Source: an uncultured bacterium (lineage in GTDB: Bacteria > Verrucomicrobiota > Lentisphaeria > Victivallales > UBA1829). From it: a stretch of 64,000 nucleotides of DNA. A model generated the notes under the pieces. That model searched no databases, was not told where the DNA came from, and saw only the letters and a list, made by a program, of their open reading frames with translations. The stretch is taken from positions 174,482-238,481 of the forward strand of contig CACYZF010000010.1 of NCBI GenBank assembly GCA_902778895.1, given 5' to 3'. Below are positions 1 through 18,708 of the stretch, one piece after another. Each line of letters starts with the position of its first letter. Position 1 is the first letter of the stretch. Position numbers and translations under genes: made by a program.

Positions 1-2
1 GC

Positions 3-608
3 TCCGCCGCCGGAAAGGTCATCGAGATCGTCGGTCTGCGCCGTGGCGAAATGATGAAGATGGAACAGCACGGTTCGCGCCAGCTCCTCGAGTTCATGAT
101 CCCCACGCGCGGCATCATCGGCCTCCGCAGCAAGGTCATGACCGCCACCGCCGGCGAAGCCATCATCTCCCACCGCTTCGACCACTACGAGCCCATGAAG
201 GGCGACGTACCGAGCCGCACCAACGGCGTGATGGTCAGCATGGGACGAGGCAAAGCCGAAGCCTACGCCATCGACGCCCTCCAGCTCCGCGGCACGTTCT
301 TCATCGACCCCGGCGTGGAGACCTACGAAGGCATGATCGTCGGCTCCCACTGCACCGACGACGACCTGGAGGTCAACCTCCAGAAGGCGAAGAAGCTCAC
401 CAACATGCGCGCCGCCGGTTCCGACCGCAACCTCAAGATCGCGCCCGCCGCGAAGCTCTCCCTCGAGGAAGCCCTCGAATACATTGAGGACGACGAGTAC
501 GTCGAAGTGACCCCGCTCAATATCCGCCTCCGCAAGAAATACCTGACCTCGCTCGAACGCCGCCGCATCCGCGGCAGGATGCTGAAGGGCGAAGGCGCCG
601 ACGAGTAA
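3..608 (+). CDS. typA: Translational GTPase TypA/BipA, C-terminal part (5'-truncated by window edge)
   Basis: Frame open from position 3; motifs EFMIPTRGIIGLR, YEGMIVG, KKLTNMRAAGSD, LSLEEALEYIEDDEYVEVTP are diagnostic of the BipA C-terminus. Confidence 0.95.
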   Translation, partial: SAAGKVIEIVGLRRGEMMKMEQHGSRQLLEFMIPTRGIIGLRSKVMTATAGEAIISHRFDHYEPMKGDVPSRTNGVMVSMGRGKAEAYAIDALQLRGTFFIDPGVETYEGMIVGSHCTDDDLEVNLQKAKKLTNMRAAGSDRNLKIAPAAKLSLEEALEYIEDDEYVEVTPLNIRLRKKYLTSLERRRIRGRMLKGEGADE

Positions 609-665
609 GCCGGAGAAGCCAGCCGGACGCGATTCCGTTTCAGCCGACACGACGAAGACAGCCCC

Positions 666-2672
666 ATGATCGACTTCCAGAACGTCACCAAGCTCCTGGG
701 CGGCAAGGCCATCCTCGACAACGCCTCGTTCCGCATCAACCGCGGCGAGCGCGTCGGCATGGTCGGGCCGAACGGCACGGGCAAGACCACCGTCTTCAGC
801 ATGATCCTCGGCGAGCTCCCGCCCGACAAAGGCGAGATCCTGATCCCGGAACGCCTCCGCATCGGCATCCTCCGCCAGCAGATCGACCTCTCCGACAAGA
901 CCGAGGACGTCCTCTCCTACGTCGCCGCCACGGGCGAACTCCCGCACATTCAGGCGCGCCTCGCGGAGGTCGAACGCGCCCTTGAGACCGATCCCGCCAA
1001 CCGCCAACTCCTCGACGAGTTCGGCCACCTGCAGACCACCTACGAACACCTCGGCGGATACGATTCCGGGCACCGCGCCGAAGCCGCGCTCGCTGGGCTC
1101 GGATTCGACGAGGAAGTCTTCCACAATCCGCTGAACTCATTTTCCGGCGGCTGGCAGATGCGCGCGTCCATGGCGCGCGTCCTGCTCTCCGAACCGGACA
1201 TCCTGCTCCTCGACGAACCCTCGAACTACCTCGACATCCCCGCCGTGGAATGGCTTCAGCGCCGTCTGCGCGGCTACACCGGCACGCTCCTCCTCATCTC
1301 CCACGACCGATTCCTGCTCAACTCCCTCACGGACGTCACGATCGAGATCAACGGCGGCAAGGCGACGCGCTATTCCGGCAACTACAGCAAGTACGTGGTC
1401 GAACGAGAAACGCGCTCCGCACTCGCCGAGGCCGCCCGCAAGAACACCGAGAAGCGCCGCGACAAGCTGAAGGAAAACATCGAGCGGTTCCGCTACAAGG
1501 CGAGCAAGGCCGCCCAGGTCCAGATGTGGATCAAGATGCTCGACAGGATCGAGGCCGAGGAGCTGCCCGAACAGCTTCACTTCCAGGGGCGCATCCGCAT
1601 CCCCGAGCCGCCCCGCTGCGGCGCCGAGGTCTGCGCCGTCGAAAACGTCTCGCATTCCTACGACGGCGCGCGCTTCGTCTTCCGCGACGTCTCGTTCACG
1701 GTCAACAACGGCGACAAGCTCGGCATCGTGGGCTACAACGGCATGGGCAAGACCACCCTGCTCCGCATCATCGCCGGCACCCTCGCCCCGACTTCCGGCC
1801 GCGCCCGCCTCGGGCACAACGTCGTGATCGGCTACCAGGCGCAGGAATTCGCCGAACTCCTCCCCGCCGAGGAGGCCGCGTACGACGTCGTGAAGCATGC
1901 CGCCCCCGGCGACACCCCTCCCTCGCGCATCCGTGAAATCCTCGGCGCGTTCGGGTTCTCCGGCGACGACGCCATGAAACAGTGCAAGGTACTGTCCGGC
2001 GGCGAGAAGATCCGCCTCTGCTTCGCGCGCATCTTCGTAAACCCGCCGAACCTGCTCATCCTCGACGAACCGACCACGCACCTCGACATCGCCGCGCGCG
2101 AGGCCCTGCAGGACGCCATCATGAACTACAAGGGCACGGTCTGCTTCGTCAGCCACGACCTCGAATTCATCCGCGGTACCGCCACCACCATCCTAGAAAT
2201 GCGCCATGACCGCGTGAAACGTTTCTTCGGCAACTTCGACTACTACAAGGAAAAGCTCGCCGAGGAGGAAGCCGGATCCTCATCGAACGCAACCCAGCAG
2301 GTGAAAGTGAGTTCCGCGCAGGCCGCATCGAATTCCGGTTCCGCCGGGTCTTCTCAAGCTCAACCCCAGCCGCAGGCCGTCGGCAAGGACCGTCGCCGCG
2401 AAAAGGCCGCGAAACGCAACGCCCTGCTCCCCGAAAAACGCCGCATCGAACGCGGCCTGGCGAAGTGCGAGAAGATCATCGAGGACGCCGAAAACGAGAA
2501 GGCGGAGATCGACAAACAGCTCATGGAAGCCACCCCGCAGACCGATTTCGCCGCCCTCCAGAAACGCCGCAAGGCTCTCGACTACGACATCGCCGAGGCC
2601 ACCGTCGAATGGGAACGCCTCGCCTCCGAACACGAAGAATTCATGAAGAAATACAACGACGACGCGGACTAA
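666..2672 (+). CDS. ABC-F family ATPase (YheS/Uup-like) with C-terminal coiled coil
   Basis: Two ABC domains (GPNGTGKTT, FSGGWQMR, LLLDEPSNYLD; GYNGMGKTT, LSGGEKIR, LILDEPTTHLD), no TM segments, low-complexity linker then helical tail. Confidence 0.93.
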   Translation: MIDFQNVTKLLGGKAILDNASFRINRGERVGMVGPNGTGKTTVFSMILGELPPDKGEILIPERLRIGILRQQIDLSDKTEDVLSYVAATGELPHIQARLAEVERALETDPANRQLLDEFGHLQTTYEHLGGYDSGHRAEAALAGLGFDEEVFHNPLNSFSGGWQMRASMARVLLSEPDILLLDEPSNYLDIPAVEWLQRRLRGYTGTLLLISHDRFLLNSLTDVTIEINGGKATRYSGNYSKYVVERETRSALAEAARKNTEKRRDKLKENIERFRYKASKAAQVQMWIKMLDRIEAEELPEQLHFQGRIRIPEPPRCGAEVCAVENVSHSYDGARFVFRDVSFTVNNGDKLGIVGYNGMGKTTLLRIIAGTLAPTSGRARLGHNVVIGYQAQEFAELLPAEEAAYDVVKHAAPGDTPPSRIREILGAFGFSGDDAMKQCKVLSGGEKIRLCFARIFVNPPNLLILDEPTTHLDIAAREALQDAIMNYKGTVCFVSHDLEFIRGTATTILEMRHDRVKRFFGNFDYYKEKLAEEEAGSSSNATQQVKVSSAQAASNSGSAGSSQAQPQPQAVGKDRRREKAAKRNALLPEKRRIERGLAKCEKIIEDAENEKAEIDKQLMEATPQTDFAALQKRRKALDYDIAEATVEWERLASEHEEFMKKYNDDAD

Positions 2673-2737
2673 ACCGTTTTTCAGTCGCCGCCCGTCGCCA
2701 CCGCTCTCTCCCAGTATCCCGCCACGCCCACACAAAT

Positions 2738-2882
2738 CTCCGCCGTTCGCGCCCCGCGGTCAGTGAAACAAGCTCCTTCCCAAATCAAAAAAACTCCGCC
2801 ATTCGCGCCTCCGCGGTAATAAAAACATGTCGAGCGCAAGCGAGCTTACCGAGGCGCGCAAATGCGCGCCCCCGGCGAAGCC
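2738..2882 (-). repeat. Repeat family 1, copy 1 (hairpin block plus two TTACCGCGRGRCGCGAAYGGCRGAG-like units)
   Basis: Reverse complement reads GGCTTCGCCGGGGGCGCGCATTTGCGCGCCTCGGTAAGCTCGCTTGCGCTCG..TTACCGCGGAGGCGCGAATGGCGGAG..TGACCGCGGGGCGCGAACGGCGGAG, which aligns with copies at 5135-5533 and 8487-8685. Confidence 0.8.
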
Positions 2883-2887
2883 AGATT

Positions 2888-3334
2888 CTATCTTTTGTTA
2901 TGATCTCTTAAAACAACTATCTTATCCAACCTGTTTTTGAATTTCTCGTCTTCATATTTATCCTTATGTAAGAATGCGGTTTTCTTTCCATTTTTGATAT
3001 AGTTGTTTCCCCTGGCTATGACCTCATCTTTAGTGAGGACATACATCGTGGGATTACTAGATGGACTTTTTTCGTCTGGCAAAACAACTATAATCCAATA
3101 ATCCCCCATGATTTTTTCTTTCTCTTTTCCGACAGAAATATGTACAGGTTTAGACAAGGTCTTGACTTGAAACCCTAAATAATCTTTCCCGTCCGGCGAA
3201 TACGCGATAATATCAATGCCTTTTGCATTCCTGGAAGTCGGCATGACATTCCATCCCAACAGCGAAAGCTGATAGCAGACATAGAACATTCCGACATTGC
3301 CGACAATCTGTTTATCTGTTTTCTTTTCAGACAT
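2888..3334 (-). CDS. Putative PD-(D/E)XK-fold endonuclease, 148 aa
   Basis: Pattern G-x-x-G..V..L..LGW (VGNVGMFYVCYQLSLLGWNV), N-x-x-G-I-D-I-I (NAKGIDII) and F-Q-V-K-T matches the restriction-like nuclease core; AT-rich; strong RBS TAGGAGG. Confidence 0.65.
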   Translation of the reverse strand: MSEKKTDKQIVGNVGMFYVCYQLSLLGWNVMPTSRNAKGIDIIAYSPDGKDYLGFQVKTLSKPVHISVGKEKEKIMGDYWIIVVLPDEKSPSSNPTMYVLTKDEVIARGNNYIKNGKKTAFLHKDKYEDEKFKNRLDKIVVLRDHNKR

Positions 3335-3379
3335 ATCAATTCCTCCTAAGTTGTTTTGTTTTTTATGAGGTTATTCCTC

Positions 3380-4714
3380 TCAATGTTTCAATATACATTC
3401 CTGATCTGAATTATTTTTTTTCTCGCTTTCTTTTTTATCTACCAGATATGCAATACCAAAAACAGCAAACAAAACGCCGATCATGATAAACCCAATACCC
3501 CACAATAACTTCTCAGCGTAAATACAACATGTCCCAACGGCAAACAAAACAGCTGTCAGACAAGCACCAATACATATCATCTTTCTCCTTTTCCTTTTTT
3601 GTTCTGCCTTTGCCCTTTCTTTTTCTTCTTCTCGTTTTCTTTGTTCCTCCTCTTCATATTCCTTTTGTTTGTTTTTTAAAACTTGAGTTGCCAGTTCAGC
3701 GTCAGGGTTATCAATATTTCCCATTAACTGAAGAGCGGTATCAAAACAATCATTGTTCTCTTGGACGTATTCGAGACAATGTTTGCAAAAGATTTTAAAA
3801 ACCTCAGGAGATGGTCCAGCAGGGGTGACATTTTCCCAATCTTTATGTCTCATAGTTCTTCCGTCAAGTTTATAAAATGAGAAAAGAAGAAATTGCAGTT
3901 GGGAAACGGATTCGATTAGACCATTCCGGGTAAAATTACTCCAAAACCATTTGACATTTTCGACGGACTCCTGAAATCTTTCAATGCTCTTCTGTAAAAA
4001 AACAGAATTCTCTATGGTTAATTCCGGCATTTCATCTGTTATTACTTTTATTTCATCAAGCAATATTTTCGCCCTATGGAAATCATCAAATGTTTGAAGA
4101 GTCTGAAGGGCATTATAAGGCTCTGCCTGTTTCTTTAAATCGCAGAATTTAAGATAAAGCATCCATTCCTTAGAATAGTCTCGCGATATAACTTTCTGCT
4201 CTTTTTCCAGAGTCTTTTTTACTTTAGTATATAGTTTCCGATATTGCAAATCTTCTATAGTATCTTGGGAAATCTTTTCAAAATCCACATTAACTTCATT
4301 GAATAGTCGTATTTTTGCTATGACCGTTTCTTGTGTCTCCAGTTCCTCAAGTCTACACGATATGTCATACAGCTTGAATTGTTGTTGCTTCGTAAACTCT
4401 TTTGCTTCTTTTTCCTTTCTGGCCAGTTCCTTCATTTCCGCTCTGTGGCGGTCATTTGCTTCTTTTTCTGCCTTTGCCATTTCTTCCAATTTCGCTCTAT
4501 GACGATCATTCGCTTCTTTTTCCGCCTTTGCTATTTCCTTCATTTGTGCACGATGAAGGTCGTTTGCTTCCCGGTCAAGTTTCGCTTGTCTTGCCTGTTC
4601 TTTTTTTGCTTGGGCGGCTTCTTCCGCAGCTTTAGCGCTACGGGCTAAAGCGGCATTCCGATTGTGTTTCTGCATGTAGTCCACGAAATCGAATTCGTTT
4701 TTCTTTGAACTCAT
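3380..4714 (-). CDS. Hypothetical coiled-coil protein with three 18-aa repeats and two C-terminal TM helices, 444 aa
   Basis: Long AT-rich ORF; RBS CGAGGT; EANDxHRAxxxExAxxEK x3; hydrophobic MICIGACLTAVLFAVGTCCIYA and LLWGIGFIMIGVLFAVFGIAYLV near the C-terminus. Confidence 0.8.
   Translation of the reverse strand: MSSKKNEFDFVDYMQKHNRNAALARSAKAAEEAAQAKKEQARQAKLDREANDLHRAQMKEIAKAEKEANDRHRAKLEEMAKAEKEANDRHRAEMKELARKEKEAKEFTKQQQFKLYDISCRLEELETQETVIAKIRLFNEVNVDFEKISQDTIEDLQYRKLYTKVKKTLEKEQKVISRDYSKEWMLYLKFCDLKKQAEPYNALQTLQTFDDFHRAKILLDEIKVITDEMPELTIENSVFLQKSIERFQESVENVKWFWSNFTRNGLIESVSQLQFLLFSFYKLDGRTMRHKDWENVTPAGPSPEVFKIFCKHCLEYVQENNDCFDTALQLMGNIDNPDAELATQVLKNKQKEYEEEEQRKREEEKERAKAEQKRKRRKMICIGACLTAVLFAVGTCCIYAEKLLWGIGFIMIGVLFAVFGIAYLVDKKESEKKNNSDQECILKH
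4409..4570 (-). repeat. Three 54-bp coding tandem repeats (18 aa)
   Basis: EANDLHRAQMKEIAKAEK / EANDRHRAKLEEMAKAEK / EANDRHRAEMKELARKEK. Confidence 0.85.
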
Positions 4715-4990
4715 CTTTTACCTCGCTATGTTCTTTGTGGTAAGAAGTACGAACTTGTACACGAGGTAACAGCCAAGCAATTAGGTAAAGTCTGGTCAAA
4801 ACTTGACGGCTGAACACAAAAAAAGCCGGACGCTTCCCCATGCGAGTACACGAGGGTCCGACCAAGAACCCGATCCCGAGACGACAGAGAAACGCCCAGC
4901 AGAAACGGAGATACAATGCTCCTGCTGGTATTTCGTGTTCGGGATCAAAAGATTGTTTGCAAACTTGGTCGGTTTTCGTGTACTTTTGAT
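4715..4990 (-). promoter_or_regulatory. Structured 5' leader (candidate cis-regulatory RNA switch) of the 444-aa gene
   Basis: 4964-4983 is complementary to 4846-4866; inner stems 4939-4946/4872-4879 and 4922-4928/4896-4902; alternative stem 4885-4899/4826-4840 followed by U7; anti-SD 4762-4769 is perfectly complementary to the SD region 4718-4725. Confidence 0.6.
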
Positions 4991-5134
4991 TGAAATACGG
5001 TTGAAATGAGCTTGAAATCAGATTCCCGTTGGTCAGGAAAGCGATTCCAAAACACAATTTACACGTTATCGGAGAAAAATCAAATTCTTTTTCTGCTTTT
5101 TTTAGTAAAATTCTCCCTTTGAGGGTAAAATGAA

Positions 5135-5235
5135 GGACGCGTTCGCGTCCCGCTTCGCTGGGGGCGGCTACGCCGCCTCGGTAGCCTCGCTCACGCTCGG
5201 CGACAGGTTCAATTTACCGCGAGACGCGTGCGGCA
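5135..5235 (+). repeat. Repeat family 1, copy 2
   Basis: GGACGCGTTCGCGTCC-CGCTTCGCTGGGGGCGGCTACGCCGCCTCGGTAGCCTCGCTCACGCTCGGCGACAGGTTCAATTTACCGCGAGACGCGTGCGGCA; 5151-5235 matches 5328-5412 at 82/85 nt. Confidence 0.9.
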
Positions 5236-5324
5236 TACGCTTTTTGGGCACAGAGAAACACAAAACCATATTGCAACTACTTTCAATTAAGTTTCAACAT
5301 CAAGAACGGGCTGTGTAATCAGGA

Positions 5325-5533
5325 GGACGCTTCGCTGGGGGCGGCTATGCCGCCTCGGTGGCTTCGCTCACGCTCGGCGACAGGTTCAATTTACCGCGAG
5401 ACGCGTGCGGCAAAGTTATCAGGATGAGGGTGGGGATGCCATCTTTCTTTACCGCGAGACGCGAACGGCAGAGTTTTTTTGGATAAGGCAAGGGGAACCT
5501 TCTCTTCTTTACCGCGAGGCGCGAACGACATTC
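5325..5533 (+). repeat. Repeat family 1, copy 3 plus two extra TTACCGCGAGRCGCGAACG units (5449, 5509) at ~60-nt period
   Basis: Near-identical to copy 2, followed by TTACCGCGAGACGCGAACGGCAGAG and TTACCGCGAGGCGCGAACGACA with similar inter-unit sequence. Confidence 0.9.
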
Positions 5534-5778
5534 GTTTTTGTATTTTGCAGATCATCGAATCAGCAAAAACCTAACGTTAGCTTTTTCCTATATTGATTAG
5601 CAGACTGAGGGCGGTGTCCTGCGTTCGTGACCAACGGCGTCAGTCAGCAAGGTCTAGATTTTATTTGAAAAGGGGGATGTTTTTTCCGGTTATGGATTTG
5701 AATTTCGGGTTCGGTGTGCTATTGTAAACGTATCCCTTCCTATCCTCTTCCACTCCAGGCACGATTAAGGAGTCCAGC

Positions 5779-6894
5779 ATGCCCGAGAAAATCTATTTCT
5801 GCAACTTCCGCACGAAAATGTACGGCGCGCCCCTGCCCGACAAACTCCACAACCTCATGGCGAAGGCCGGATTCGAGACGCTCGACCTGCGCGACAAGTT
5901 CGTCGCGATCAAAATGCACTTCGGCGAGCTCGGCAACCTGGCGTTCCTGCGCCCGAACTACGCGAAGGTCGTGGCCGATTTCGTGAAGCAGCGCGGCGGA
6001 AAACCGTTCCTGACCGATTGCAACACGCTGTACCCGGGCTACCGCAAGAACGCGCTGGAGCACCTCGAAACCGCCGACCTCAACGGATTCGGCCCGCTCA
6101 CCACGGGCTGCCACGTGATCATCGGCGACGGGCTGAAGGGCAACGACGAGGTCGAACTCCCCGTCCCGAACGGCGTCCACTTCAAGACAGCGAAGATCGG
6201 CCGCGCCATCTCCGACGCGGACGTGATCATCACGCTGAACCATTTCAAGGGCCACGAGCTGACCGGCATGGGTGGCGCGATCAAGAACCTCGCCATGGGC
6301 TGCGCCTCGCGCGCGGGCAAAATGGCGATGCACAGCGACGGCAAGGCGGAACTCGACCAAGACCTCTGCATCGGCTGCAAAATGTGCTTCAGGCAGTGCG
6401 CGAACAATGCCCTGCACTTCGACGCCGCCAGCAAGAAGATGTCGCTCGACCGCGAAGCCTGCGCCGGATGCGGCCGCTGCCTGAGCGTGTGCCCCGTCGA
6501 CGCCATCCACGCATCGATGGCGAAGGCCACCGAGCCCCTCGACGAGAAAATGGCCGAATACGCCGCCGCCGTCGTGAACGGCAAACCGAGCTTCCACATC
6601 AGCCTCATCTGCGACGTCTCGCCGAACTGCGACTGCCATTCGGAAAACGACGCACCCATCATCCCGGACATCGGCATGCTCGCCGGATTCGACCCCGTCG
6701 CGCTCGACGTGGCGTGCTGCGACCTCTGCAACAAGATGCCGCGCATACAGGGCTCCTGGATGGACGAGTGCGAGCACGGAAACGACGTCTTCAACGACGC
6801 GCACGACAATACCCGCTGGCGCGTCACCGTGGACCACGCCGTGAAGATCGGATTCGGCACCGACCAGTACGAGCTGATCGACCTCGACAAGTAA
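5779..6894 (+). CDS. DUF362-domain Fe-S protein with 2[4Fe-4S] ferredoxin insert
   Basis: AIKMHFGELGN, TDCNTLY, HFKGHELTGMGGAIKNLAMGCAS; CIGCKMCFRQC and CAGCGRCLSVCP; DVSPNCDC; DPVALD. Confidence 0.88.
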   Translation: MPEKIYFCNFRTKMYGAPLPDKLHNLMAKAGFETLDLRDKFVAIKMHFGELGNLAFLRPNYAKVVADFVKQRGGKPFLTDCNTLYPGYRKNALEHLETADLNGFGPLTTGCHVIIGDGLKGNDEVELPVPNGVHFKTAKIGRAISDADVIITLNHFKGHELTGMGGAIKNLAMGCASRAGKMAMHSDGKAELDQDLCIGCKMCFRQCANNALHFDAASKKMSLDREACAGCGRCLSVCPVDAIHASMAKATEPLDEKMAEYAAAVVNGKPSFHISLICDVSPNCDCHSENDAPIIPDIGMLAGFDPVALDVACCDLCNKMPRIQGSWMDECEHGNDVFNDAHDNTRWRVTVDHAVKIGFGTDQYELIDLDK

Positions 6895-7081
6895 TACTGG
6901 CTTTTTCCTCAAGAATTACCCCGCCCGGTGTTTTTTCTGCTCCGTGCGGGCTTTTTTTTTGCTCAAGAACATATTCTTTCCAAGATATGGCGAGGAGTTT
7001 TTGAACTCCAATACGCACAAAGCATACAGACAAATGTCAGTTGAAAGCCGTTTTTTCTTCCTCTTTTTTTTCTTTTGAAGA

Positions 7082-7110
7082 TTGACTGTTTGCATGACAC
7101 GCGATATAAT
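7082..7110 (+). promoter_or_regulatory. sigma70-type promoter of the DUF2971 gene
   Basis: TTGACT-17 nt-TATAAT, about 55 nt upstream of ATG with RBS GAGGT. Confidence 0.7.
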
Positions 7111-7163
7111 AACAATGAAATAAACATAAATCTTTTTCTCCATCCCCGTACAATGAGGTAAAC

Positions 7164-8399
7164 ATGAACATCAATGACACCAACTTCAAATCGTTTCTTT
7201 CCGTCACTTCAAAAGAGAATCTTCTTCACTTTCTGACCAGCCGCAGACACCCGTTTTATCATCACTTCACGAATTTTTCCACACTCGAAAAAAAGCTGAA
7301 AGGCAAATCGTGGGTATTTACCCCGAGCAAAAGCAAAAATGATTACCACGAATACGATTCCAAAAGTGATCGGACTATCCGGGATAATATTTTGTCGACG
7401 TCCTTTTCCTGGGGAGACGAAGACAATATGGCAATGTGGTCAATGTATTGTGTTCCGAGGGAAGACGCGGTAAGGATCACTTTCAACGAACAAGCAATGG
7501 AGCGATGGCTTCAGGTTTTACAGCAAAAAATGGCAAAACCTTGCGACACAGTCTCTCAATGGTTTCAGACATGGGATCGGACCGAAGCGTATCAGGATGG
7601 TCCCGTTCCCGCGCCAGAGAAAACGATGGGGGCAGTCTTCCTGCATGATATCGTTTACTTCCTGGGATATCAAAACGACAGCCCAGAAAACAAACTGTGC
7701 TGGGGTGGCATAGAACAGCCAGCTCAGGACAACATGCTGGTCAATGATATTCGTTATATCCGTGAAATGACCGGTTTTGTCAAAAACAGCGCTTGGAGCT
7801 ATGAACAGGAATCAAGGCTGTCCATTTATTTCAATCGCAAGCCGGAACAATCGTATTTGCTTGAGTTCGAGGAAGAAGACTGGGAATATATCCTGTGCAA
7901 TTCGCAGATATCGTTCGGCCCCTGGACACCTCTTTTCCGTTTTGAGGAAAGAAAAAGAGAAGTATTGGGCTGGATCAAAAATCCGAAAACAAGAGAGCAT
8001 TTCAGTTGCAATATAATGTTGAGAAATAGTTTCTTTTCAGCAAGGGTAAAGATGAGCGATAACAAATATGTAAGATCTCCACGAAAGAAAATCCTGTATT
8101 TATTGGATGAAACAATACGCCATGCAAACGTTTATCGTTGCGACAGAGAAATGATTCCGGACGGGGGCAGAGCTCAGTTTATCCGCGAAATGCAGCTGCT
8201 GGTCTTTCAAATTGACAACTACAACCAGTATTTCCTTTCAAAAAGGAAAGATCCGTCCAACAAAAAACCATGCAAGAAAGTCGTCACTCTGGTTTCTGAA
8301 TTCATCGAAAAACTGGAATCAAATAGAGATGATCTTGGATATCTATACCCGACTGAAGTCATTGACGAGTTAAAGACTACCTATCTTCAAAACGAATGA
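7164..8399 (+). CDS. DUF2971-like (ADP-ribosyltransferase-fold) protein with extra C-terminal region
   Basis: YHHFT, KNDYHE, TSFS...DNMAMWSMY...VRITF, IVY, K-x-x-A-W-S-Y-E-Q-E-S-R motifs typical of DUF2971; AT-rich. Confidence 0.72.
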   Translation: MNINDTNFKSFLSVTSKENLLHFLTSRRHPFYHHFTNFSTLEKKLKGKSWVFTPSKSKNDYHEYDSKSDRTIRDNILSTSFSWGDEDNMAMWSMYCVPREDAVRITFNEQAMERWLQVLQQKMAKPCDTVSQWFQTWDRTEAYQDGPVPAPEKTMGAVFLHDIVYFLGYQNDSPENKLCWGGIEQPAQDNMLVNDIRYIREMTGFVKNSAWSYEQESRLSIYFNRKPEQSYLLEFEEEDWEYILCNSQISFGPWTPLFRFEERKREVLGWIKNPKTREHFSCNIMLRNSFFSARVKMSDNKYVRSPRKKILYLLDETIRHANVYRCDREMIPDGGRAQFIREMQLLVFQIDNYNQYFLSKRKDPSNKKPCKKVVTLVSEFIEKLESNRDDLGYLYPTEVIDELKTTYLQNE

Positions 8400-8486
8400 A
8401 GAATGCCGATCATCAGTTCATACTCCTGCGGAAAATCACGGGGCAAAACATCCCTGCATGCAAACATATCAGGAAGATGAACTTGC

Positions 8487-8564
8487 CGCTTTGCTGGGGG
8501 CGGCTACGCCGCCTCGGTGAACTCGTTTCCACGAGTTCGACTGATTACTTGAACGCGAGACGCG
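8487..8564 (+). repeat. Repeat family 1, copy 4
   Basis: CGCTTTGCTGGGGGCGGCTACGCCGCCTCGGTG...TGAACGCGAGACGCG; first 32 nt nearly identical to copy 2. Confidence 0.85.
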
Positions 8565-8588
8565 ACAAACGTAGTAATAGCAGATAAT

Positions 8589-8685
8589 CTCTGCTGGGCG
8601 CGGCTCGCGGTCAAGCAACCTGATGCCGAACTTGTGCGAGGCTACCGAGGCCCGCGAATGCGGGCCCCTCGGACGCAGCGCGTCC
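8589..8685 (-). repeat. Repeat family 1, copy 5 (inverted relative to copy 4)
   Basis: Reverse complement GGACGCGCTGCGTCCGAGGGGCCCGCATTCGCGGGCCTCGGTAGCCTCGCACAAGTTCGGCATCAGGTTGCTTGACCGCGAGCCGCGCCCAGCAGAG is colinear with copy 2. Confidence 0.85.
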
Positions 8686-8702
8686 AGCCCGCAAGATCCT
8701 AT

Positions 8703-10094
8703 CTATTTCATTTCTTTCAGGAGATCGGCGGCATAGGAATCGCCCTGGGCGGCGGCCTTTTCCAGCCACTTCCGCGCCTCGACTGCATCCTTTTTCACGC
8801 CTTCGCCGTGAAGGTACAGATACCCAAGATTGCGCTGTGCGGCGAAATCGCCAAGCTCCGCCGCTTTCCTGAACCATTCCGCGGCCTGCTCCATGTCCCG
8901 GTCGACACGCACGATCGTGGGCCAAAACCATGGCGTCTCCGACGGCTCGCAATAAGCCATACCGAGCGCCCGCATCGCACGCGCATCCCCCTGATCAGCC
9001 GCCTTCCGATACCATTCGACCGACTCTTTCCATTTCTCAAGCTTTTCCTGATCGACCGGAAGGCTGAATTTAACATTTCCATATCCGCATTCCAGCAACA
9101 GACCGAGGCAGAACTGCGCGTCCGCGTCTCCCTGTTCCGCGTATTTCCGGAATATCTTCTCGGCTTTTTTCATACGAATGCCTCTATGTCCCCAGGAGTC
9201 CGCATACATGAATGCCAAACGGAATTCGAGATCGCGTCTCTGCGTCTGCTCCACGGCTGCCTCCAGCCATCTTTCGGCGCTGGCGCGGCTCTTTCTGACC
9301 CCGGCACCCTCGTAATAACATTGGCTGAGCCGAAGCTGCGCGTCGACGTCGGCGTTCTGCGCGGCTTCCATCACCCCATCGAAAACGAACTCATCCATTC
9401 CTTCCGGGAACGGTTTCACGGCCACTTTCAAAGCCGCATCCGTGCCCGGTTCCGTCAAGAGCCCTTTCTCCTTCAGTTCGTCATCCGAAAGCTCGCCCAG
9501 GTCTTCCACCAGGTCCGGGTCCAGAATCATTTCGGTGCTGTATCGCCCGGCCCCCTGCCAGCAAGGATGCGTTTCTCCGGCGGGATATTCGAACGGCGTA
9601 AGATGAGAGCGGAAATCATCGCCGAAACACACATATACTTCCTTCCCTGCCAGAGGGCCATTCAAGACCGTGGCATAAATGCTTGCACCGTTCTCGAATT
9701 CCCAGAATAAATATCTGTTAGTCCGGAACAGCGTCCCCGGCGCAAGCAAGTAAGAAACAGATTCCCCTTTGGACGATGTCCCGTCGGAATAATACCCGCG
9801 CCTGACTAAAGACCGATAATACTCCTGTTCGTGCCGACGCCCTTCGTCCGCACCTCGCGCCTGCGTCAGGAAAAACGTGTCGTCTATCTCCTTCAGATAC
9901 AGCATGGGCTCCCGGTCCGACGGACAGAAAGTATCAGGCTCCACCTCGCCGTAATCCTTCATCAAATAAACGTGATGACCCTGATATGCTTCGCCGGGCA
10001 AGGACTTGGCCCAATAGCACGACGACGCGAAAAACGACAATAGCAGGAGCATGCCAGTCAGCAGAAACATGGGCAGACGGGATTTGAATTTCAT
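8703..10094 (-). CDS. Sel1-repeat putative lipoprotein
   Basis: Start moved to MKFKSRL (RBS AAGGA); signal peptide ending FASSC; repeats such as AEQGDADAQFCLG, WYRKAADQGDARAMRALG, WFRKAAELGDFAAQRNLGYLY. Confidence 0.85.
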   Translation of the reverse strand: MKFKSRLPMFLLTGMLLLLSFFASSCYWAKSLPGEAYQGHHVYLMKDYGEVEPDTFCPSDREPMLYLKEIDDTFFLTQARGADEGRRHEQEYYRSLVRRGYYSDGTSSKGESVSYLLAPGTLFRTNRYLFWEFENGASIYATVLNGPLAGKEVYVCFGDDFRSHLTPFEYPAGETHPCWQGAGRYSTEMILDPDLVEDLGELSDDELKEKGLLTEPGTDAALKVAVKPFPEGMDEFVFDGVMEAAQNADVDAQLRLSQCYYEGAGVRKSRASAERWLEAAVEQTQRRDLEFRLAFMYADSWGHRGIRMKKAEKIFRKYAEQGDADAQFCLGLLLECGYGNVKFSLPVDQEKLEKWKESVEWYRKAADQGDARAMRALGMAYCEPSETPWFWPTIVRVDRDMEQAAEWFRKAAELGDFAAQRNLGYLYLHGEGVKKDAVEARKWLEKAAAQGDSYAADLLKEMK

Positions 10095-10168
10095 CGTATT
10101 GCATCCTTCTTTTGCCGTTCTGCGAGGGCGGGATATCTCGTTTACGCATGCCCCCTCTGCAAATATAC

Positions 10169-10504
10169 TCAAAGCTCTTTCAGAATTTCCTGTAGATGCT
10201 GTTTCAACGGAGCCAAATCGTTCCGGTAAGCATCCCACATGTATTCCGGGCGGGGCCTTACATAATCATGAATCAGGATGTTTCTCATCCCGATGATGTC
10301 GCCCCAGGGGATTTCCGGGTGTTTTGCCTAAAGCGCATCGGAAACCCTGTTGGCGGCTTCCCCGAGGATCGCGAAGTTGAAGGACATGGCATCCAGCAGA
10401 AGCCTTGATTGAAAGAATTCCTCTTTGGAAACGTCTTTCATCGCGTCCTCAATGCGGGCGATGCCCTGAATCATGTGTTCGATCCTGTCACGGTCACTTG
10501 TCAT
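10169..10504 (-). pseudogene. hepT: HepT/DUF86 HEPN ribonuclease toxin interrupted by an in-frame TAG at 10328-10330
   Basis: MTSDRDRIEHMI...[38 protein letters not shown]...QEILKEL*; the RNxxxH-D-Y motif lies after the stop; ATGA overlap with upstream MNT. Confidence 0.85.
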
Positions 10505-10794
10505 AACAGGACCATATCCTTCCTTACATTGGCCGCGAAGGCGTCTTCGGTCAGAGAATCTTCCGGAATCAGGTCGACTTTGCATCCGAGAAGCTTTTGC
10601 AGGTCGTATTGCAGCCCGCCGAGGTCGAACAGGGAAGAATGCGGCTGAAACTCGGCAATGAAATCGACGTCACTGTCGGGCGTCTCCTCCATCCGGGCGC
10701 AGGAACCGAACACATAGACCTTGCCGGCCTTGTGCTTTCTGGCGATCGCATAAATCTCGCTCCTCAAACTCCGGATTCTGTCGAGCTGGCACAT
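10501..10794 (-). CDS. mntA: MNT (minimal nucleotidyltransferase) antitoxin
   Basis: VYVFGSCARMEETPDSDVDF (GS-x10-DxD), LLGCKVDLI; 97 aa; coupled to the HEPN gene. Confidence 0.9.
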   Translation of the reverse strand: MCQLDRIRSLRSEIYAIARKHKAGKVYVFGSCARMEETPDSDVDFIAEFQPHSSLFDLGGLQYDLQKLLGCKVDLIPEDSLTEDAFAANVRKDMVLL

Positions 10795-10882
10795 TGTTTT
10801 TCTCCTGATTAAGAAGAATTCTTTCGATTCATTATCTATAATTTACGACCGGAACAGGAAAAAGTCAAATCGGTTTCCGAAC

Positions 10883-10923
10883 AAAAATGAAGGGGCCGGA
10901 ATCCTCAACAGAGTTCCGGCCCC
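10883..10923 (-). terminator. Intrinsic terminator after pnp
   Basis: Minus strand GGGGCCGGAACTC-loop-GAGGATTCCGGCCCC followed by TTCATTTTT. Confidence 0.7.
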
Positions 10924-10924
10924 G

Positions 10925-10971
10925 TGAGGGCAAGCCCTCAACTGCAATAGTGCGCGGCTACGCTCGCGCAC
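10925..10971 (-). repeat. Repeat family 2 double-hairpin element (3' of pnp)
   Basis: GTGCGCG-AGCGTAGC-CGCGCAC TATTGCA GTTGAGGGCTTGCCCTCA. Confidence 0.75.
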
Positions 10972-10983
10972 AACAAATCTGGC

Positions 10984-13104
10984 TTAATTCTTCTTGCCGT
11001 CGAGCTCTTCGAGGGCGGCCTTGCGGCTGAGACGGATCTTGCCGCTACGGTCGATGTCGACAACCTTCACGCTCACGACGTCGCCTTCCTTGCAGATGTC
11101 GGTAACGTTCGCGACGCGGTAGTTCGCCATCTCGGAGATGTGGAGCAGGCCGTCCTGGCCGGGCAGGATCTCGACGAACGCGCCGAAGTCCTTGACGGTC
11201 TTGACGACGCCGCGGTAGATCTTGCCGATCTCGGCCTCGGCGGTGTAGAACTGGATCTTGCGCTTGACCTCTTCGAGGACGTCCTTGTTCGCGGCGAGGA
11301 TGCTGACGGAGCCGTCGTCCGCGATGTCGACCTGCGACTGCGTGGACTCGGTGATTTCCTTGATGTTCTTGCCGCCGGTGCCGATGAGGGCGCCGATCTT
11401 GTCCGGGTTGATGTGGATGACTTCCATCTGCGGGGCGCGCGGGCTGACCTCGGGACGCGGCGCGGCGATGCAGTCGCGGACGACCTTGTGGATCTCGGCG
11501 CGCGCGGCCTTGTTCTGCTGCATGGCGCGGGCGAGCGTGGCGATCGGGATGCCGGGGAGCTTCAGGTCGAGCTGGAATCCGGTGATGCCTTCCTCGGTGC
11601 CGCAGACCTTGAAGTCCATGTCGCCGAAGTGGTCTTCCGCGCCGATGATGTCGGTGAGGAGAAGTTCCTTGCCGGTGTCGTCGGTCACGAGGCCGCAGGA
11701 GATGCCCACGACCGGGGACTTGATCGGCACGCCTGCGTCCATCAGGGCGAGCGTGGCGCCGCAGACGGATGCCATGGAGGTGGAGCCGTTCGACGCCATG
11801 ATCTCGGAGACGCAGCGGACGGTGTACGGGAAGTCCTTCGGCACGACCTGCGCGACGGAGCGTTCGGCGAGGTTGCCGTGTCCGATCTCGCGGCGGCCGG
11901 GGCCGGCGATGCGGCCGGTTTCGCCCGTGCTGTAGTTCGGGAAGTTGTAGTGCAGGTAGAATCTCTTGACGTTGGTGCCGCCGTAGATTCTGTCGGATTC
12001 CTGGGCGTCCTTCGGGCCGCCGAGGGTGGCGATCACGAGCGCCTGGGTCTCGCCGCGCTGGAAGAGCGCGCTGCCGTGGACGACGGGGAGCACGCCGACT
12101 TCGGCGGAGAGCGGGCGGATCTGGGTCACGCCGCGGCCGTCGGGGCGGTAGCCCTTCTCGAGGATGGCCTTGCGGATGGTGGCGCGGACGTACTTGTCGA
12201 ACGCCATGCCGAGGTAGAAGTTGAAATCCTCTTCGCCGTAGGCTTCGAGGTACTGTTCCTTCAGCTGTTCGGCGCAGAGTTCCTTCAGGGCGGAGAGACC
12301 TTTTTCACGGTCTTCCTTGCCGGGGACGAGGCACGCGGCCTCGATCTTGTCGGAAATGAGCGCGATCATGGCGGCGTTGAAGTCTTCCGGGACGAGATGG
12401 AGCGTGGGCTCCTTCTTCGGACGGCCGACCTTGGCGGCGAGCTCGAGCTGGGCTTCGCACTGCTTCTTCACGATCTCGTTGGCGAAGATCATGGCCTTTT
12501 CGAGCGTTTCCTCGGAGCATTCCTTCGCCTCGCCCTCGATCATGATGACCTTGTCCGGCAGGCCGGCGTAAACGAGCTCGAGCGTGCTCTTTTCCATTTC
12601 CTGGATCGTCGGGTTCGCGATGAACTGGCCGTCAATGCAGCCGACGCGGACGGCGCCGATCGGGCCGCGGAACGGCAGGTCGGAGAGCACGAGCGCGGTG
12701 GACGCGCCGAGCATGGAGAGCACGTCGCCCTCGTTCACGCCGTCGGCGGAGAGCAGCAGTCCGCAGACCTGGACTTCATCGAAGAAGCCTTCGGGGAAGA
12801 GCGGGCGGATCGGGCGGTCGGCCATGCGGCAGATCAGGATCTCCTTGTCGCTGGGACGGCCTTCGCGCTTGATGTAGCCGCCGGGGAACTTGCCGGCCGC
12901 GGAATACTTCTCGCGGTAGTCGACCTGCAGCGGGAAGAAGTCCTGGCCTTTCTTGGCCTCGCCGGAGCAGGCGGCGGAGAAGACGATGGTGTCGCCCTGA
13001 CGGACCGTGCAGGAGCCGTTGGCGAGGTGAGCGAGCTTACCGGCTGCCAGCGTGAGGTCGCGGCCCGGTCCGATGTTGATTTTGACTGAAATCTCTTCCA
13101 GCAT
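10984..13104 (-). CDS. pnp: Polyribonucleotide nucleotidyltransferase (PNPase)
   Basis: [52 protein letters not shown] (IGTGGKNIK) and S1 domains. Confidence 0.98.
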
Positions 13105-17508: not shown

Positions 17509-17576
17509 TGCTCTCAGCTTCGCTTGAGCACGTGTTCTCGCGCAGCAGAACACTTCTTCAGCACCGCCTGCGGTGC
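17486..17576. repeat. Back-to-back pair of repeat family 2 elements overlapping the yggS stop
   Basis: Minus copy 17486-17531: GTGCTCA-AGCGAAGC-TGAGAGCAC TACTTCA GGAGGCTTTGCCTCC; plus copy 17532-17576: GTGTTCT-CGCGCAGC-AGAACAC TTCTTCA GCACCGCCTGCGGTGC. Confidence 0.7.
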
Positions 17577-17621
17577 CCGCGCACTGAGAGCAAATCAATT
17601 TCGCCTCTCATAGTTTTCCGT

Positions 17622-17710: not shown

Positions 17711-18670
17711 ATGCCGAACACGAAACGAAACATCTTCCTCGCGGCCGTCGCGGGACTGCTGACCGTCGCGGCGCTCACCGGGTGCAGGCATGACGTGTAC
17801 AATTCCGACGGGGAATGGGTAAACGTGCCGATCTCCCCGATCAGCATTGAGCCGGCTTTGCTGCCATGGTTAGAAGATGAGATTACCACTTACGGCCTTG
17901 CAATCGGGGTTGGATCCGAGAATATAGATTCGTATGGACTTTTCGTTCAGTTGGCAAACTACTTCGCTGGTAAAAACTACGGTCTGACGTGCGGTTTGGT
18001 AAACGGTTTTACGGAGCCGTATTTGGATCCCGATTGGCCGCGATCCGGCCGCGCGGAGCGAACGGATTTTTACGGGATTGCAGTCGGCGCCCTCAATCAG
18101 CCGTATGTCTATCACAAGGGGTACGGCACGCAGAACGGCATTTCCATCCATGCGATCGATTTCATGAGCGACACGAACGGGTTTTCCGTCGAAGCGCTTG
18201 GTGGAGAAAAATATTTTAAAGGAGTTGACATCTGCGCTTGCAGACTTGGCATATCCAAGGAGGGAGCCGGACTTCAGCTGGTCGGACTGGATCTGTCATT
18301 TGGGCTCGGGAAATACGAAATAACCGGCTGCCAGATCGGAGGATTCCTGAGCTCCGCCGTTCATGGCGCGCAGATCGGGGCGCTCACGTACAATTTATAC
18401 GATCCGAGTATAGCACTCAAGAGTAATCATTGGAAGCTCATCCGGGGATGCCTGAATTTAGGCGTCCTGAATCTCCAATTGAAGGAGGGGGTTCAGGTTG
18501 GGGCGGTCAATCATACCTCGGACGGAAATCCGGTTCAGATCGGGCTGTTCAACACCACATCGGAGGGAAGCCCATTCCAAATCGGTCTGCTGAACTACAA
18601 CAAAAACGGATTCCTCCCCGTGTTCCCGTTCTTCAATTACAGCGTCAAAAAAGACGCTCCCGAACACTGA
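17711..18670 (+). CDS. Lipoprotein with GxQIGxxN surface repeats (LA_2272-like)
   Basis: Signal peptide and lipobox LTGC; GCQIGG, GAQIGA, GVQVGAVN, PVQIGLFN, PFQIGLLN, terminal NGFLPVFPFFN. Confidence 0.75.
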   Translation: MPNTKRNIFLAAVAGLLTVAALTGCRHDVYNSDGEWVNVPISPISIEPALLPWLEDEITTYGLAIGVGSENIDSYGLFVQLANYFAGKNYGLTCGLVNGFTEPYLDPDWPRSGRAERTDFYGIAVGALNQPYVYHKGYGTQNGISIHAIDFMSDTNGFSVEALGGEKYFKGVDICACRLGISKEGAGLQLVGLDLSFGLGKYEITGCQIGGFLSSAVHGAQIGALTYNLYDPSIALKSNHWKLIRGCLNLGVLNLQLKEGVQVGAVNHTSDGNPVQIGLFNTTSEGSPFQIGLLNYNKNGFLPVFPFFNYSVKKDAPEH

Positions 18671-18708
18671 CGCGAACGGCATAAGCTCTTTTCCCCCTTA
18701 ATGCAAAA

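Follow-up and report, generated by a model that had tools for sequence, protein, structure and literature searches.

A multi-hairpin intergenic repeat at the edges of accessory-gene units in a Victivallales lineage, and the structured leader RNA found at their head

How can a bacterial chromosome change whole accessory genes at fixed places? Integrons offer one well-known answer: a structured, sequence-variable attC site follows the cassette, and the cargo changes at a fixed platform whose promoter drives it. Repetitive extragenic palindromes (REPs) and bacterial interspersed mosaic elements (BIMEs) of Escherichia coli are known in other roles, as terminators and as mRNA stabilisers. Arrays of neisserial intergenic mosaic elements (NIMEs) have been proposed to promote recombination with incoming DNA, and their dRS3 element is described as a 20-bp unit with 6-bp terminal inverted repeats that is the target of a phage integrase (both in the account of PMC3898611). 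The subject of this study is a repeat of about 110 nucleotides (nt), called rep below, in a stretch of 64,000 nt from an uncultured rumen bacterium of the Victivallales (assembly GCA_902778895.1, contig CACYZF010000010.1; G000:C10:174482-238481 in our numbering); this whole stretch is called the window. The closest analogues of rep are the NIME/dRS3 arrays together with the minimal mobile elements (MMEs) of Neisseria, and REPs, BIMEs and REPINs (REP doublets forming hairpins) are also close.

We describe rep as a genus-specific, structure-constrained intergenic repeat tied to the edges of small expression units of accessory genes. That it is a real family of multi-hairpin repeats, far beyond chance, is confirmed by its counts. 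The genome to which the window belongs (G000; 3.24 Mb in 20 contigs, named C1, C4 and so on, GC content 0.58, 94% complete) holds 35 full copies in 25 clusters, and 12 weaker partial matches besides, when it is searched with an nhmmer profile that was built from the five copies in the window and iterated once, a full copy being a match at E<=1e-8. The partial matches mostly correspond to the 3′ unit of the repeat, TTACCGCGAGNCGCGAAYGGC. A strict pattern of two blocks with a true gap of 51-53 nt matches 17 times in G000, and the reversed control pattern does not match at all. When this pattern was run on 59 genomes of the family, which represent 12 genera, it was limited to the genus g1 (G000 and 14 relatives): 12 of the 59 genomes carry it, namely G000 and 11 of the 14, the three relatives without it being G004, G005 and G006, and none of the 44 genomes in the 11 other genera. 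Strict matches number 0-17 per genome, G000 being the highest with 17. Outside the family, a BLAST search against 12 genomes of other families gave nothing for rep among the matches listed.

Our favoured reading, held with about even confidence, is that rep is a boundary element of the REP, BIME or NIME kind, probably working as terminator and insulator, which together with a leader RNA would provide homology arms for the swapping of cassettes. Read in the direction of its cargo, a full unit begins with one to seven antisense reps, followed by a sigma-70-like promoter, a structured leader RNA of about 240 nt that ends in a U-run, a variable stretch of leader (about 100 nt), the low-GC cargo genes, one to three in number, and finally one sense rep.

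The evidence begins with the anatomy of the repeat. Copies aligned from across the genome share one order of modules, which is an optional hairpin H0, the block CGCTTCGCT, the hairpins H1 and H2, a T-rich linker and the hairpin H3. H0 has the form GGACGC-N3-4-GCGTCC and is usually preceded by a purine-rich or A-rich run, H1 consists of GGGG, a variable inner stem and CCTC, and H3 reads ACCGCGAGNCGCG..CGG, often with a T-run after it. H2 is perfect in one subfamily (GAACTCGT/ACGAGTTC, GAACTTGC/GCAAGTTC and CGTGC/GCACG) and imperfect in the commonest one. It had been noticed in the first-pass annotation of this DNA that the inner stem changes while its pairing is kept, and this observation extends well beyond the window: counted by script over 80 distinct copies from several genomes, the central stem H1 is perfect over at least 7 bp in 52, and five main compensatory variants are found (GGGGCGGC/GCCGCCTC, GGGGCGCGC/GCGCGCCTC, GGGGCTCGC/GCGAGCCTC, GGGGCCCGC/GCGGGCCTC and GGGGCGCAC/GTGCGCCTC). 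The same variants of H1 and H2 recur among the 88 strict-pattern matches listed, and even the orthologous reps downstream of an ABC-F gene in two relatives (G001 and G008; relatives are numbered G001-G014 and onwards) show a compensatory difference. RNAalifold, applied to a MAFFT alignment of rep, found only a CGCG mini-hairpin; it misses H1 and H2 because their lengths differ between subfamilies. The most invariant blocks are those at the inner edges, by the cargo, with GCTTCGCTGGGGG at the 5′ end of rep and GGGGAAGCGTCCGGCTTTTTT at the 3′ end of the leader.

The features of the window that belong to these units, or adjoin them, are the following.

2732-2772 (-): extra rep 3′ unit (reverse complement of TTACCGCGRGNCGCGAAYGGC), outermost on the left; partial nhmmer match to model positions 72-112
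2783-2896 (-): rep copy 1, type L, without H0; sense, directly 3′ of the cargo operon, ending in H3 and a T-run (nhmmer)
2888-3334 (-): cargo open reading frame (ORF) of 148 amino acids, GC 0.38, without family match (Pfam, PADLOC, NCBIfam)
3380-4714 (-): cargo ORF of 444 amino acids, GC 0.38 (ORF listing)
4715-4812 (-): variable 5′ leader part, with a predicted pairing of an anti-Shine-Dalgarno UUACCUCG and a Shine-Dalgarno sequence CGAGGUAA before the 444-residue ORF (sequence reading)
4813-5055 (-): conserved structured leader RNA, labelled MOD, in cargo direction (match of model R1, G000:C10:179294-179536(-))
5056-5083 (-): predicted sigma-70-like promoter of leader and cargo, -35 TTGATT (5083-5078), 16-nt spacer, -10 TAAATT (5061-5056)
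5133-5248 (+): rep copy 2, type R, with H0 hairpin GGACGCG-TTC-GCGTCC; adjoins the promoter, antisense to the cargo (nhmmer)
5305-5427 (+): rep copy 3, tandem, 177 nt after copy 2 (nhmmer, repeat search)
5442-5486 and 5502-5539 (+): two extra rep 3′ units, a T-run after each (nhmmer partial matches, repeat search)
7164-8399 (+): low-GC ORF of 411 amino acids, with a weak, below-cutoff DUF2971 match
8472-8588 (+): rep copy 4, sense, 3′ of the 411-residue ORF, with the perfect H2 GAACTCGT/ACGAGTTC (nhmmer)
8579-8689 (-): rep copy 5, sense, past the 3′ end of the Sel1-repeat gene, in a tail-to-tail doublet with copy 4 (nhmmer)
8703-10238 (-): Sel1-repeat gene
18668-18684 (+): orphan remnant of a rep 3′ unit (TGACGCGAACGGCATAA), at the right edge of a variable slot beside a YggS-like gene (synteny with the relative G010)

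Most of what the first-pass annotation had reported for these positions stands. Its five copies are all recovered by nhmmer and align colinearly, its extra units near 2738, 5449 and 5509 are the 3′ units at 2732-2772, 5442-5486 and 5502-5539, and its distances of 5, 87 and 17 nt from the stop codons of the ORFs at 2888-3334, 7164-8399 and 8703-10238 are correct. The repeat search likewise shows the inverted blocks around the two-gene module at 2888-4714, and copies 4 and 5 do form a tail-to-tail doublet. Two of its gene labels have fared less well. The ORF at 2888-3334 had been called a nuclease, for which none of the families in Pfam, PADLOC or NCBIfam gives support, and the DUF2971 label of the ORF at 7164-8399 corresponds to a match that exists but is weak and below the cut-off. 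What had been missed altogether is the leader: promoter and leader at 4813-5083 belong to the unit, and thus the asymmetry of the two cassette ends is explained. As for the orphan remnant, its bare 11-mer is frequent in coding DNA (100 matches, about 18 being expected from composition), so that only its syntenic position gives it meaning.

The placement of the hairpins points to a role at the ends of transcription units. Type-L reps, which lack H0, lie 5-17 nt past the stop codons of cargo genes and have H3 and a T-run at their end. Copy 2 carries H3 and a T-run on its sense strand and, on the opposite strand, immediately before the leader promoter, H0 and a T-run; a simple scan places terminator-like sites at both of its ends (5151-5134(-) and 5226-5240(+)). 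Probably, H3 with its T-run would stop transcripts that leave a unit, and in reps on the promoter side H0 with the T-run of the other strand would stop transcripts that are about to enter it.

Might rep be instead a selfish or neutral repeat, without any role in cassettes, which gathers at the edges of AT-rich, non-essential intergenic islands and whose hairpins just reflect its own copying? Its distribution bears on this question from both sides. All rep clusters are extragenic, between long ORFs. A flank of 1 kb with GC below 0.48 is present at 16 of the 25 clusters; among 939 intergenic gaps the share is 12.8%, and among all 1-kb windows it is 7.3% (binomial p = 3e-9, the clusters not being independent, as pairs flank the same islet). 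The other nine clusters have no low-GC flank, a caveat to the first-pass annotation and a point in favour of a selfish repeat. Also in favour of a selfish repeat, copy number and arrangement differ between species, from none to 17 strict matches per genome; arrays, which run to seven tandem copies on one side of a locus only, are recent tandem duplications, an example being the array of seven tandem reps with a unit of about 145 nt in one relative (G012:C79, 1817-2900 of the extracted locus); and leader units without rep exist in other genera. It is to be noted for this last array that its spacer bears a repeated motif, TGAAAC-N5-6-TGAAACTAGTTGCAA.

A selfish repeat does not easily explain, on the other hand, why its orientation is so strict. 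The low-GC side is the inner 5′ side of rep in 14 of the 16 low-GC clusters. Nine loci are built alike, with rep(-), 0.07-3.7 kb of cargo and at least one rep(+), the 3′ unit of rep always pointing outward, and the GC content of the DNA so bracketed is 0.42-0.55, that of the flanks 0.46-0.65. Six reps that stand alone closely follow a gene on its 3′ side, in sense orientation; the clusters that break this rule are three (C4:142.9k, C6:358.5k and C8:246.9k). Against a selfish repeat stand, too, the direct contact of rep with the promoter in 24 of 30 loci, its start 5-17 nt past stop codons, and the identity of 0.89-0.92 between same-site copies of different species, compensatory changes included. 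Taking both sides together, we consider a selfish or neutral origin doubtful. Two copies at different sites of G000 (C1:35725-35840 and C16:3587-3694) are 0.90 identical, other pairs compared being at 0.69-0.83, which may point to gene conversion or to a recent copying event inside this genome.

Another part of these units is the leader, which we regard as the most novel element found here. A BLAST comparison of the window with its relatives brought out 4806-5130 as a dispersed conserved module, of which G000 has eight full copies and genus relatives up to nine. Besides the one in the window, the copies in G000 are at these places.

C9:2810-3052: leader copy
C16:3271-3512: leader copy
C1:35404-35650: leader copy
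C1:163595-163841: leader copy
C1:172542-172786: leader copy
C1:184705-184950: leader copy, at the locus of NusG paralogs given below
C4:262094-262339: leader copy

In the 24 of 30 genus loci mentioned above, the reps that directly follow the module number one to seven and share its orientation. Its RNA, about 240 nt long with eight helices, would end in GCGUCCGGC-U7 (the A-run 4818-4824 on the plus strand). A covariance model, R1, has full-length matches in 43 of the 59 family genomes and 10 of the 12 genera, with one to eight copies per genome. Over 34 distinct sequences from several genera, 96.3% of the cells are paired and 35 of the 52 pairs show changes on both sides, while none of 500 shuffles reaches any of the five measures and slid controls pair only 32-48%. 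The minus strand gives the better structure: the consensus energy is -126.9 against -111.4 for the plus strand, G-U cells are 366 against 146, and the mean single-sequence energy is -101.8 kcal/mol on the cargo strand against -88.3 on the other. Upstream, hexamers of the type TTGAYW and TAAATT are kept among leader copies, 16-17 nt apart on the cargo strand, and the spacer between them varies. The promoter predicted from them at 5056-5083 scores 8/12 and so was not listed by a simple promoter scan. A reading of the leader as a plus-strand small RNA was considered and dropped, since the minus strand folds better, has more G-U pairs and carries the promoter.

Neither leader nor rep corresponds to a known RNA or repeat family. 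At E<=10 over 2600-5700, Rfam gives nothing on the leader (4813-5055), and its best overlaps with rep are Xoo1 (20.8 bits, threshold 70) and sX12 (20.6 bits, threshold 106); at gathering score the whole window yields only a tRNA. The part at 4700-5540 has no match in plasmid or phage collections. A narrow look at the literature on intergenic repeats of Victivallales found nothing relevant.

We read the module as a shared promoter and 5′ leader, with the leader acting perhaps as a riboswitch-like attenuator or as an antitermination element, and the RNA is a well-supported candidate for a new class of cis-regulatory RNA. What follows it is very diverse. Twelve leader loci of other genera were studied; in nine of them the RNA is followed on its own strand by ORFs of 80 amino acids or more, and the loci that were read show promoter-like boxes upstream. 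Downstream genes in those genera include WYL, Hsp70-like proteins, glycosyltransferases with an epimerase, radical SAM/SPASM proteins, parts of a Tad pilus, MscS and NusG paralogs. A second conserved hairpin (GCTGGATTTCGCAGC...GTGAAATCGGC) is seen there 0-60 nt past the leader RNA, with a T-run after it in some loci, and may be an expression platform. Inverted repeats flanking the leader were found in none of the six loci sampled from other genera. Since rep is confined to one genus, and the leader occurs family-wide without repeats elsewhere, rep is supposed to be a young add-on to an older, leader-headed unit.

In four genomes, which belong to three genera, a leader copy has NusG paralog genes immediately after it, the last three of the following loci being identified by coordinates.

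G000 C1:185341-187363: two UpxY/RfaH/LoaP-like genes after one leader (best NCBIfam matches, all below cut-offs)
G010:C135:25173-26634: NusG paralog
G175:C32:31209-31391: NusG paralog
G191:C229:4566-4808: NusG paralog

At least two NusG matches are present in 13 of the 43 leader-positive genomes and in 3 of the 16 leader-negative ones, which is no clear association. The idea that the leader recruits a NusG paralog is thus a lead only, drawn from local linkage and not backed by co-occurrence.

Evidence for turnover of the cargo comes from comparison of the same chromosomal sites among relatives. The first-pass annotation had pointed to the interval that begins at the ABC-F gene. Six genomes (G000, G001, G002, G008, G010 and G014) have here the same series of ABC-F gene, rep(-), cargo, leader and rep(+), with cargo that is partly or wholly different; in four others (G003, G004, G011 and G013) the neighbours are other genes. 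Compared across relatives, homology to G000 ends exactly at the inner edge of rep in G001 and G008. An invertible segment at this site was considered and rejected, as one orientation is found in all six genomes with the unit. At a second site, beside the YggS-like gene, G010 holds the cargo of the G000 ABC-F site, in a whole rep-bounded cassette and between other genes, and G000 has there a different gene and only the 17-nt remnant of the rep 3′ unit. At a third, beside an MscS-like gene, the cassette of G014 is that of G000, the reps of G011 and G008 enclose other cargo, the DNA of G007 and G002 is different, and G013 is empty, with about 290 nt and no rep. The G000 cassette of this MscS-like site is found again in G012, at the site that in G000 holds the cassette of contig C16. 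Different whole-gene cassettes thus lie between the same conserved genes at the ABC-F, MscS-like, YggS-like and C16 sites, and the same cargo sits at different rep-bounded sites in both cases examined. The places that rep marks have the look of slots in the chromosome in which genes for accessory functions and for defence are swapped.

What moves, and what stays? For the first of the two same-cargo pairs (G000 and G010:C52), the cargo is 95-100% identical over about 3200-4699, core genes being 93-96% identical, and 2900-3199, the 3′ two-thirds of the 148-residue ORF, is only 52-69% identical, the rest of that ORF, from 3200 on, being at 95-99%; the leader core is at 73-81% and the reps at 0.78-0.79. 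This tract suggests a recent exchange, with a polymorphic C-terminus of the 148-residue ORF. For the second pair (G000 and G012), the identity is 80-93% in cargo and leader core and 0.75-0.83 in the reps. Taking both pairs, the cargo is 85-98% identical, and the identity of the reps (0.75-0.83) is at background level. At the ABC-F site, on the contrary, reps of the same site are well conserved: they are 0.89-0.92 identical across species, against 0.78-0.79 to the same-cargo copies of G010, with the leader of this site at 88-92%, and copy 1 keeps this 0.89-0.92 to its counterparts in G001 and G008 despite the different cargo. By these identities, reps are not carried along with the cargo. Breakpoints of identity vary: one, near 3200, is within a cargo gene, another, near 4700-4800, is at the edge of the leader, and a third, near 35600 of contig C1, falls in the promoter part. 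Variable breakpoints, with reps left behind, fit homologous recombination better than a site-specific reaction, without proving it, and they argue against a transposon with terminal inverted repeats.

Metagenomes add one more case. Gut metagenome runs of cattle and goat contain this DNA, and no RNA run is listed for window 2600-5800. Circular junctions, named as a check in the first-pass annotation, were not seen, nor was an empty-site junction, in the contigs of four DNA runs over window 1-12000, contigs which are short; the joints in them are cross-matches between repeat copies, except in a single contig from run X6. There, 6895-8712, with the DUF2971-like ORF and rep copies 4 and 5, is swapped for 743 other letters, which have the DUF362 gene on one side and the Sel1 gene on the other (joint 6894->8713).

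The first-pass annotation had proposed an undescribed, cassette-like system of gene acquisition. Edges of variable cargo, turnover and the same cargo elsewhere speak for that idea, and the part of it that calls for a dedicated reaction is opposed by the lack of any dedicated recombinase among the families searched and by breakpoints that are not fixed. An extended form of it may be imagined, in which Victivallaceae chromosomes have 'docking slots' with a resident promoter and leader, genus-specific reps close the slot and provide, at their invariant inner edges, the crossover points of some recombination activity, and defence and surface genes are taken into an RNA-controlled platform, as in an integron without adjacent integrase. 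We hold this to be an unlikely picture.

Somewhat harder to defend is the proposal that a dedicated recombinase acts in trans, has its site in rep, in the 3′ unit of rep or at its inner edge, and brings cargo in and out; it would be either an HUH enzyme working on folded single-stranded DNA or a tyrosine recombinase, of Xer or integron type. Several observations are what one would expect of such a site: the structure of H1 and H2 is kept more than their sequence, reps are strictly inverted around the cargo, the most invariant blocks, GCTTCGCTGGGGG and GGGGAAGCGTCCGGCTTTTTT, are at the inner edges, the homology break at the ABC-F site falls exactly there, the orphan half of a 3′ unit at the YggS-like site has its break in the loop of H3, the extra 3′ units could have been left by earlier events as scars, and reps stay at their site while the cargo changes, as attachment sites would. 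No such enzyme, however, was found. No recombinase gene stands beside any rep cluster, and the 94%-complete assembly has no intact Y1/HUH, IS110 or TnpB. It had been suggested to look for rep next to HUH or RAYT (REP-associated tyrosine transposase) genes and tyrosine recombinases, and none adjoins. Eight matches to PF00589, two of them Xer-sized, are present in G000, the closest being 13.6 kb from a rep, on C16 (features specific to IntI were left unexamined). PF01797 (Y1/HUH) has one match, a truncated TnpA of IS200/IS605 type reduced to its C-terminal 75 amino acids (C7:16862-17068), which is followed by a hairpin, has no rep nearby and is the sole trace of a Y1 transposase in the assembly. 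Breakpoints, moreover, vary, and one is inside a cargo ORF; the motif of the orphan remnant alone is frequent in coding DNA; and the consensus of the 35 copies, read by eye, lacks at its ends the RYYYAAC/GTTRRRY cores of attC, as the first-pass annotation had already said. We therefore find a dedicated recombinase at rep improbable.

Least of all can we believe that the cargo belongs to a non-autonomous transposon, of the miniature inverted-repeat transposable element (MITE) or mobile-insertion-cassette kind with its transposase elsewhere, whose long terminal inverted repeats would be the reps, because inverted reps with a constant outer end in nine loci, a near-empty head-to-head doublet (C6:250988-251270), the G013 site empty of both reps, so that both would be on the extra DNA, and the position of several loci at contig ends are outweighed by reps that do not travel with the cargo in either same-cargo pair (0.75-0.83), by the lack of a visible target-site duplication at the G010/G000 YggS-like and G000/G013 MscS-like junctions (where the DNA is not alignable base by base), by a transposase content of only two rve matches and two DDE_Tnp_1 fragments, none near the rep 3′-unit motif (other transposase families were not searched), and by arrays of up to seven tandem copies on one side, which are atypical of such termini.

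Coming back to rep as a boundary element with homology arms, conserved leader and reps are the sole sequence common to all slots. Because they are present at many sites, they would serve as portable homology arms, and cargo, with or without its leader, would be exchanged between sites and lineages by homologous recombination, the reps staying behind. Several points weigh against this view. Termination, the start of transcription and the transcribed strand rest on inference, as does the recombination mechanism. Recombination of the RecA type works poorly on homology arms that are 75-90% identical. The empty G013 site has no rep, so that reps must reach new sites by means outside the model, and reps of the MscS-like site follow neither site nor cargo. 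Folding of the whole rep is unremarkable in energy (z = -0.77 to -2.78, five of eight copies being weaker than -1). A clear T-run after H3 is found in only about a third of the copies, as read from the alignment without a formal count, and terminator-like sites are near the shuffle rate, with 11 found against a mean of 7.4 (standard deviation 2.8). Finally, all six sampled units of other genera are without inverted repeats and four of the eight leaders in G000 are without reps; rep is thus not needed for a unit to work.

The cargo itself deserves a short description. In the 444-residue ORF of the window, the N-terminal part is repeat-rich, with a weak, below-cutoff TolA-like match at residues 24-127; three tandem repeats of 54 nt at 4398-4570 encode a protein repeat of 18 residues, and the C-terminal part is hydrophobic, with weak similarity to DUF2207_C. 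Other cargo bracketed by rep in G000 consists of a PD-(D/E)XK protein with a Sel1-repeat protein, a type II/IIG-like methyltransferase with a specificity subunit, TM2/zinc-ribbon membrane proteins, a C-terminal fragment of MmeI, and an AIDA/RTX-repeat protein; genes for Mrr and a SIR2-like PDC-S21 protein adjoin a rep doublet. The bracketed genes are mutually unrelated and partly related to defence, and none is a recombinase.

Two further kinds of dispersed element were met on the way. Window 10573-10886 is another dispersed repeat, with matches of 74-86% at C3:17350-17567 and in several relatives. A second hairpin family, of the type GTGCTTG..CAAGCAC and with one member starting GCTTCGCT, is found at window 17509-17593 and at about C3 75440-75480, C17 6200-6250 and C8 246790-246830; its hairpins adjoin some reps and also lie at the left edge of the YggS-like slot.

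If these views are right, a little-studied rumen lineage of Victivallales gains and trades its genes for defence and accessory functions with no integrase or transposase in view, and the boundaries of its cassettes are standard and recognisable from sequence alone. A multi-copy structured RNA without an Rfam match, standing before accessory operons of very diverse kinds in 10 of the 12 genera of the family, comes to light as well. Signatures of rep and leader would locate variable slots, and hence new defence genes, in metagenome bins of Victivallales.

How, then, does this arrangement compare with known ones? Some systems share single traits with it and differ in others. Integrons also have a structured, variable site after variable cargo and a fixed platform with a promoter, but rep lacks the RYYYAAC/GTTRRRY cores and an adjacent intI, stands in inverted and not in direct order, and has variable breakpoints. 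The pdif modules of Acinetobacter, in the descriptions of PMC6449649 and PMC13141974, are accessory modules bracketed by inverted sites and shuffled between locations with no recombinase inside, as the units here are; pdif sites are, however, 28-bp XerC/XerD sites on plasmids in those descriptions (PMC6449649, PMC13141974), whereas rep units are chromosomal. Correia elements are intergenic elements of about 100-150 bp with inverted repeats that affect the expression of neighbours (as outlined in PMC2649163), an effect that for rep is a prediction. In that outline, one Correia element is one MITE, bounded by terminal inverted repeats of its own (PMC2649163), whereas two reps enclose kilobases and rep creates no promoter.

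For the leader RNA, not for rep, the LoaP/RfaH/UpxY type of leader and terminator is perhaps the nearest working model. A shared structured 5′ leader and an intrinsic terminator before long or accessory operons are common to both, as far as PMC12691694 presents that system; the LoaP element is given there as a small UNCG hairpin (PMC12691694), and the leader of Victivallaceae is about 240 nt with eight helices.

REPs, BIMEs and REPINs come closer to rep itself. They, too, are extragenic, GC-rich, hairpin-forming and lineage-specific, lie often 3′ of genes, and occur single or arrayed (in the accounts of PMC3116915 and PMC3337134). Unlike them, rep is neither a short palindrome of about 20-40 nt nor a doublet of two REPs, but has the separate hairpins H0-H3; it is present in tens of copies, not hundreds, and is tightly tied to the edges of low-GC cargo; and a RAYT gene, which in REP systems is a cognate single-copy gene that the repeat usually flanks, was not found in G000, only the truncated PF01797 remnant on C7. 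The likeness to NIMEs and MMEs is the greatest, in that lineage-specific, modular intergenic arrays lie beside variable genes, and different whole-gene cassettes lie between the same conserved genes, both in Neisseria, to judge from the presentation in PMC3898611, and in the genus of rep. Arrays of rep have one to seven tandem copies along with loose 3′ units, and they arise by tandem duplication, of a unit of about 145 nt in G012, much as BIME and NIME arrays do. The difference is that rep is about 110 nt long with three to four hairpins and has no known enzyme, and that many of its units add a promoter and a structured leader RNA.

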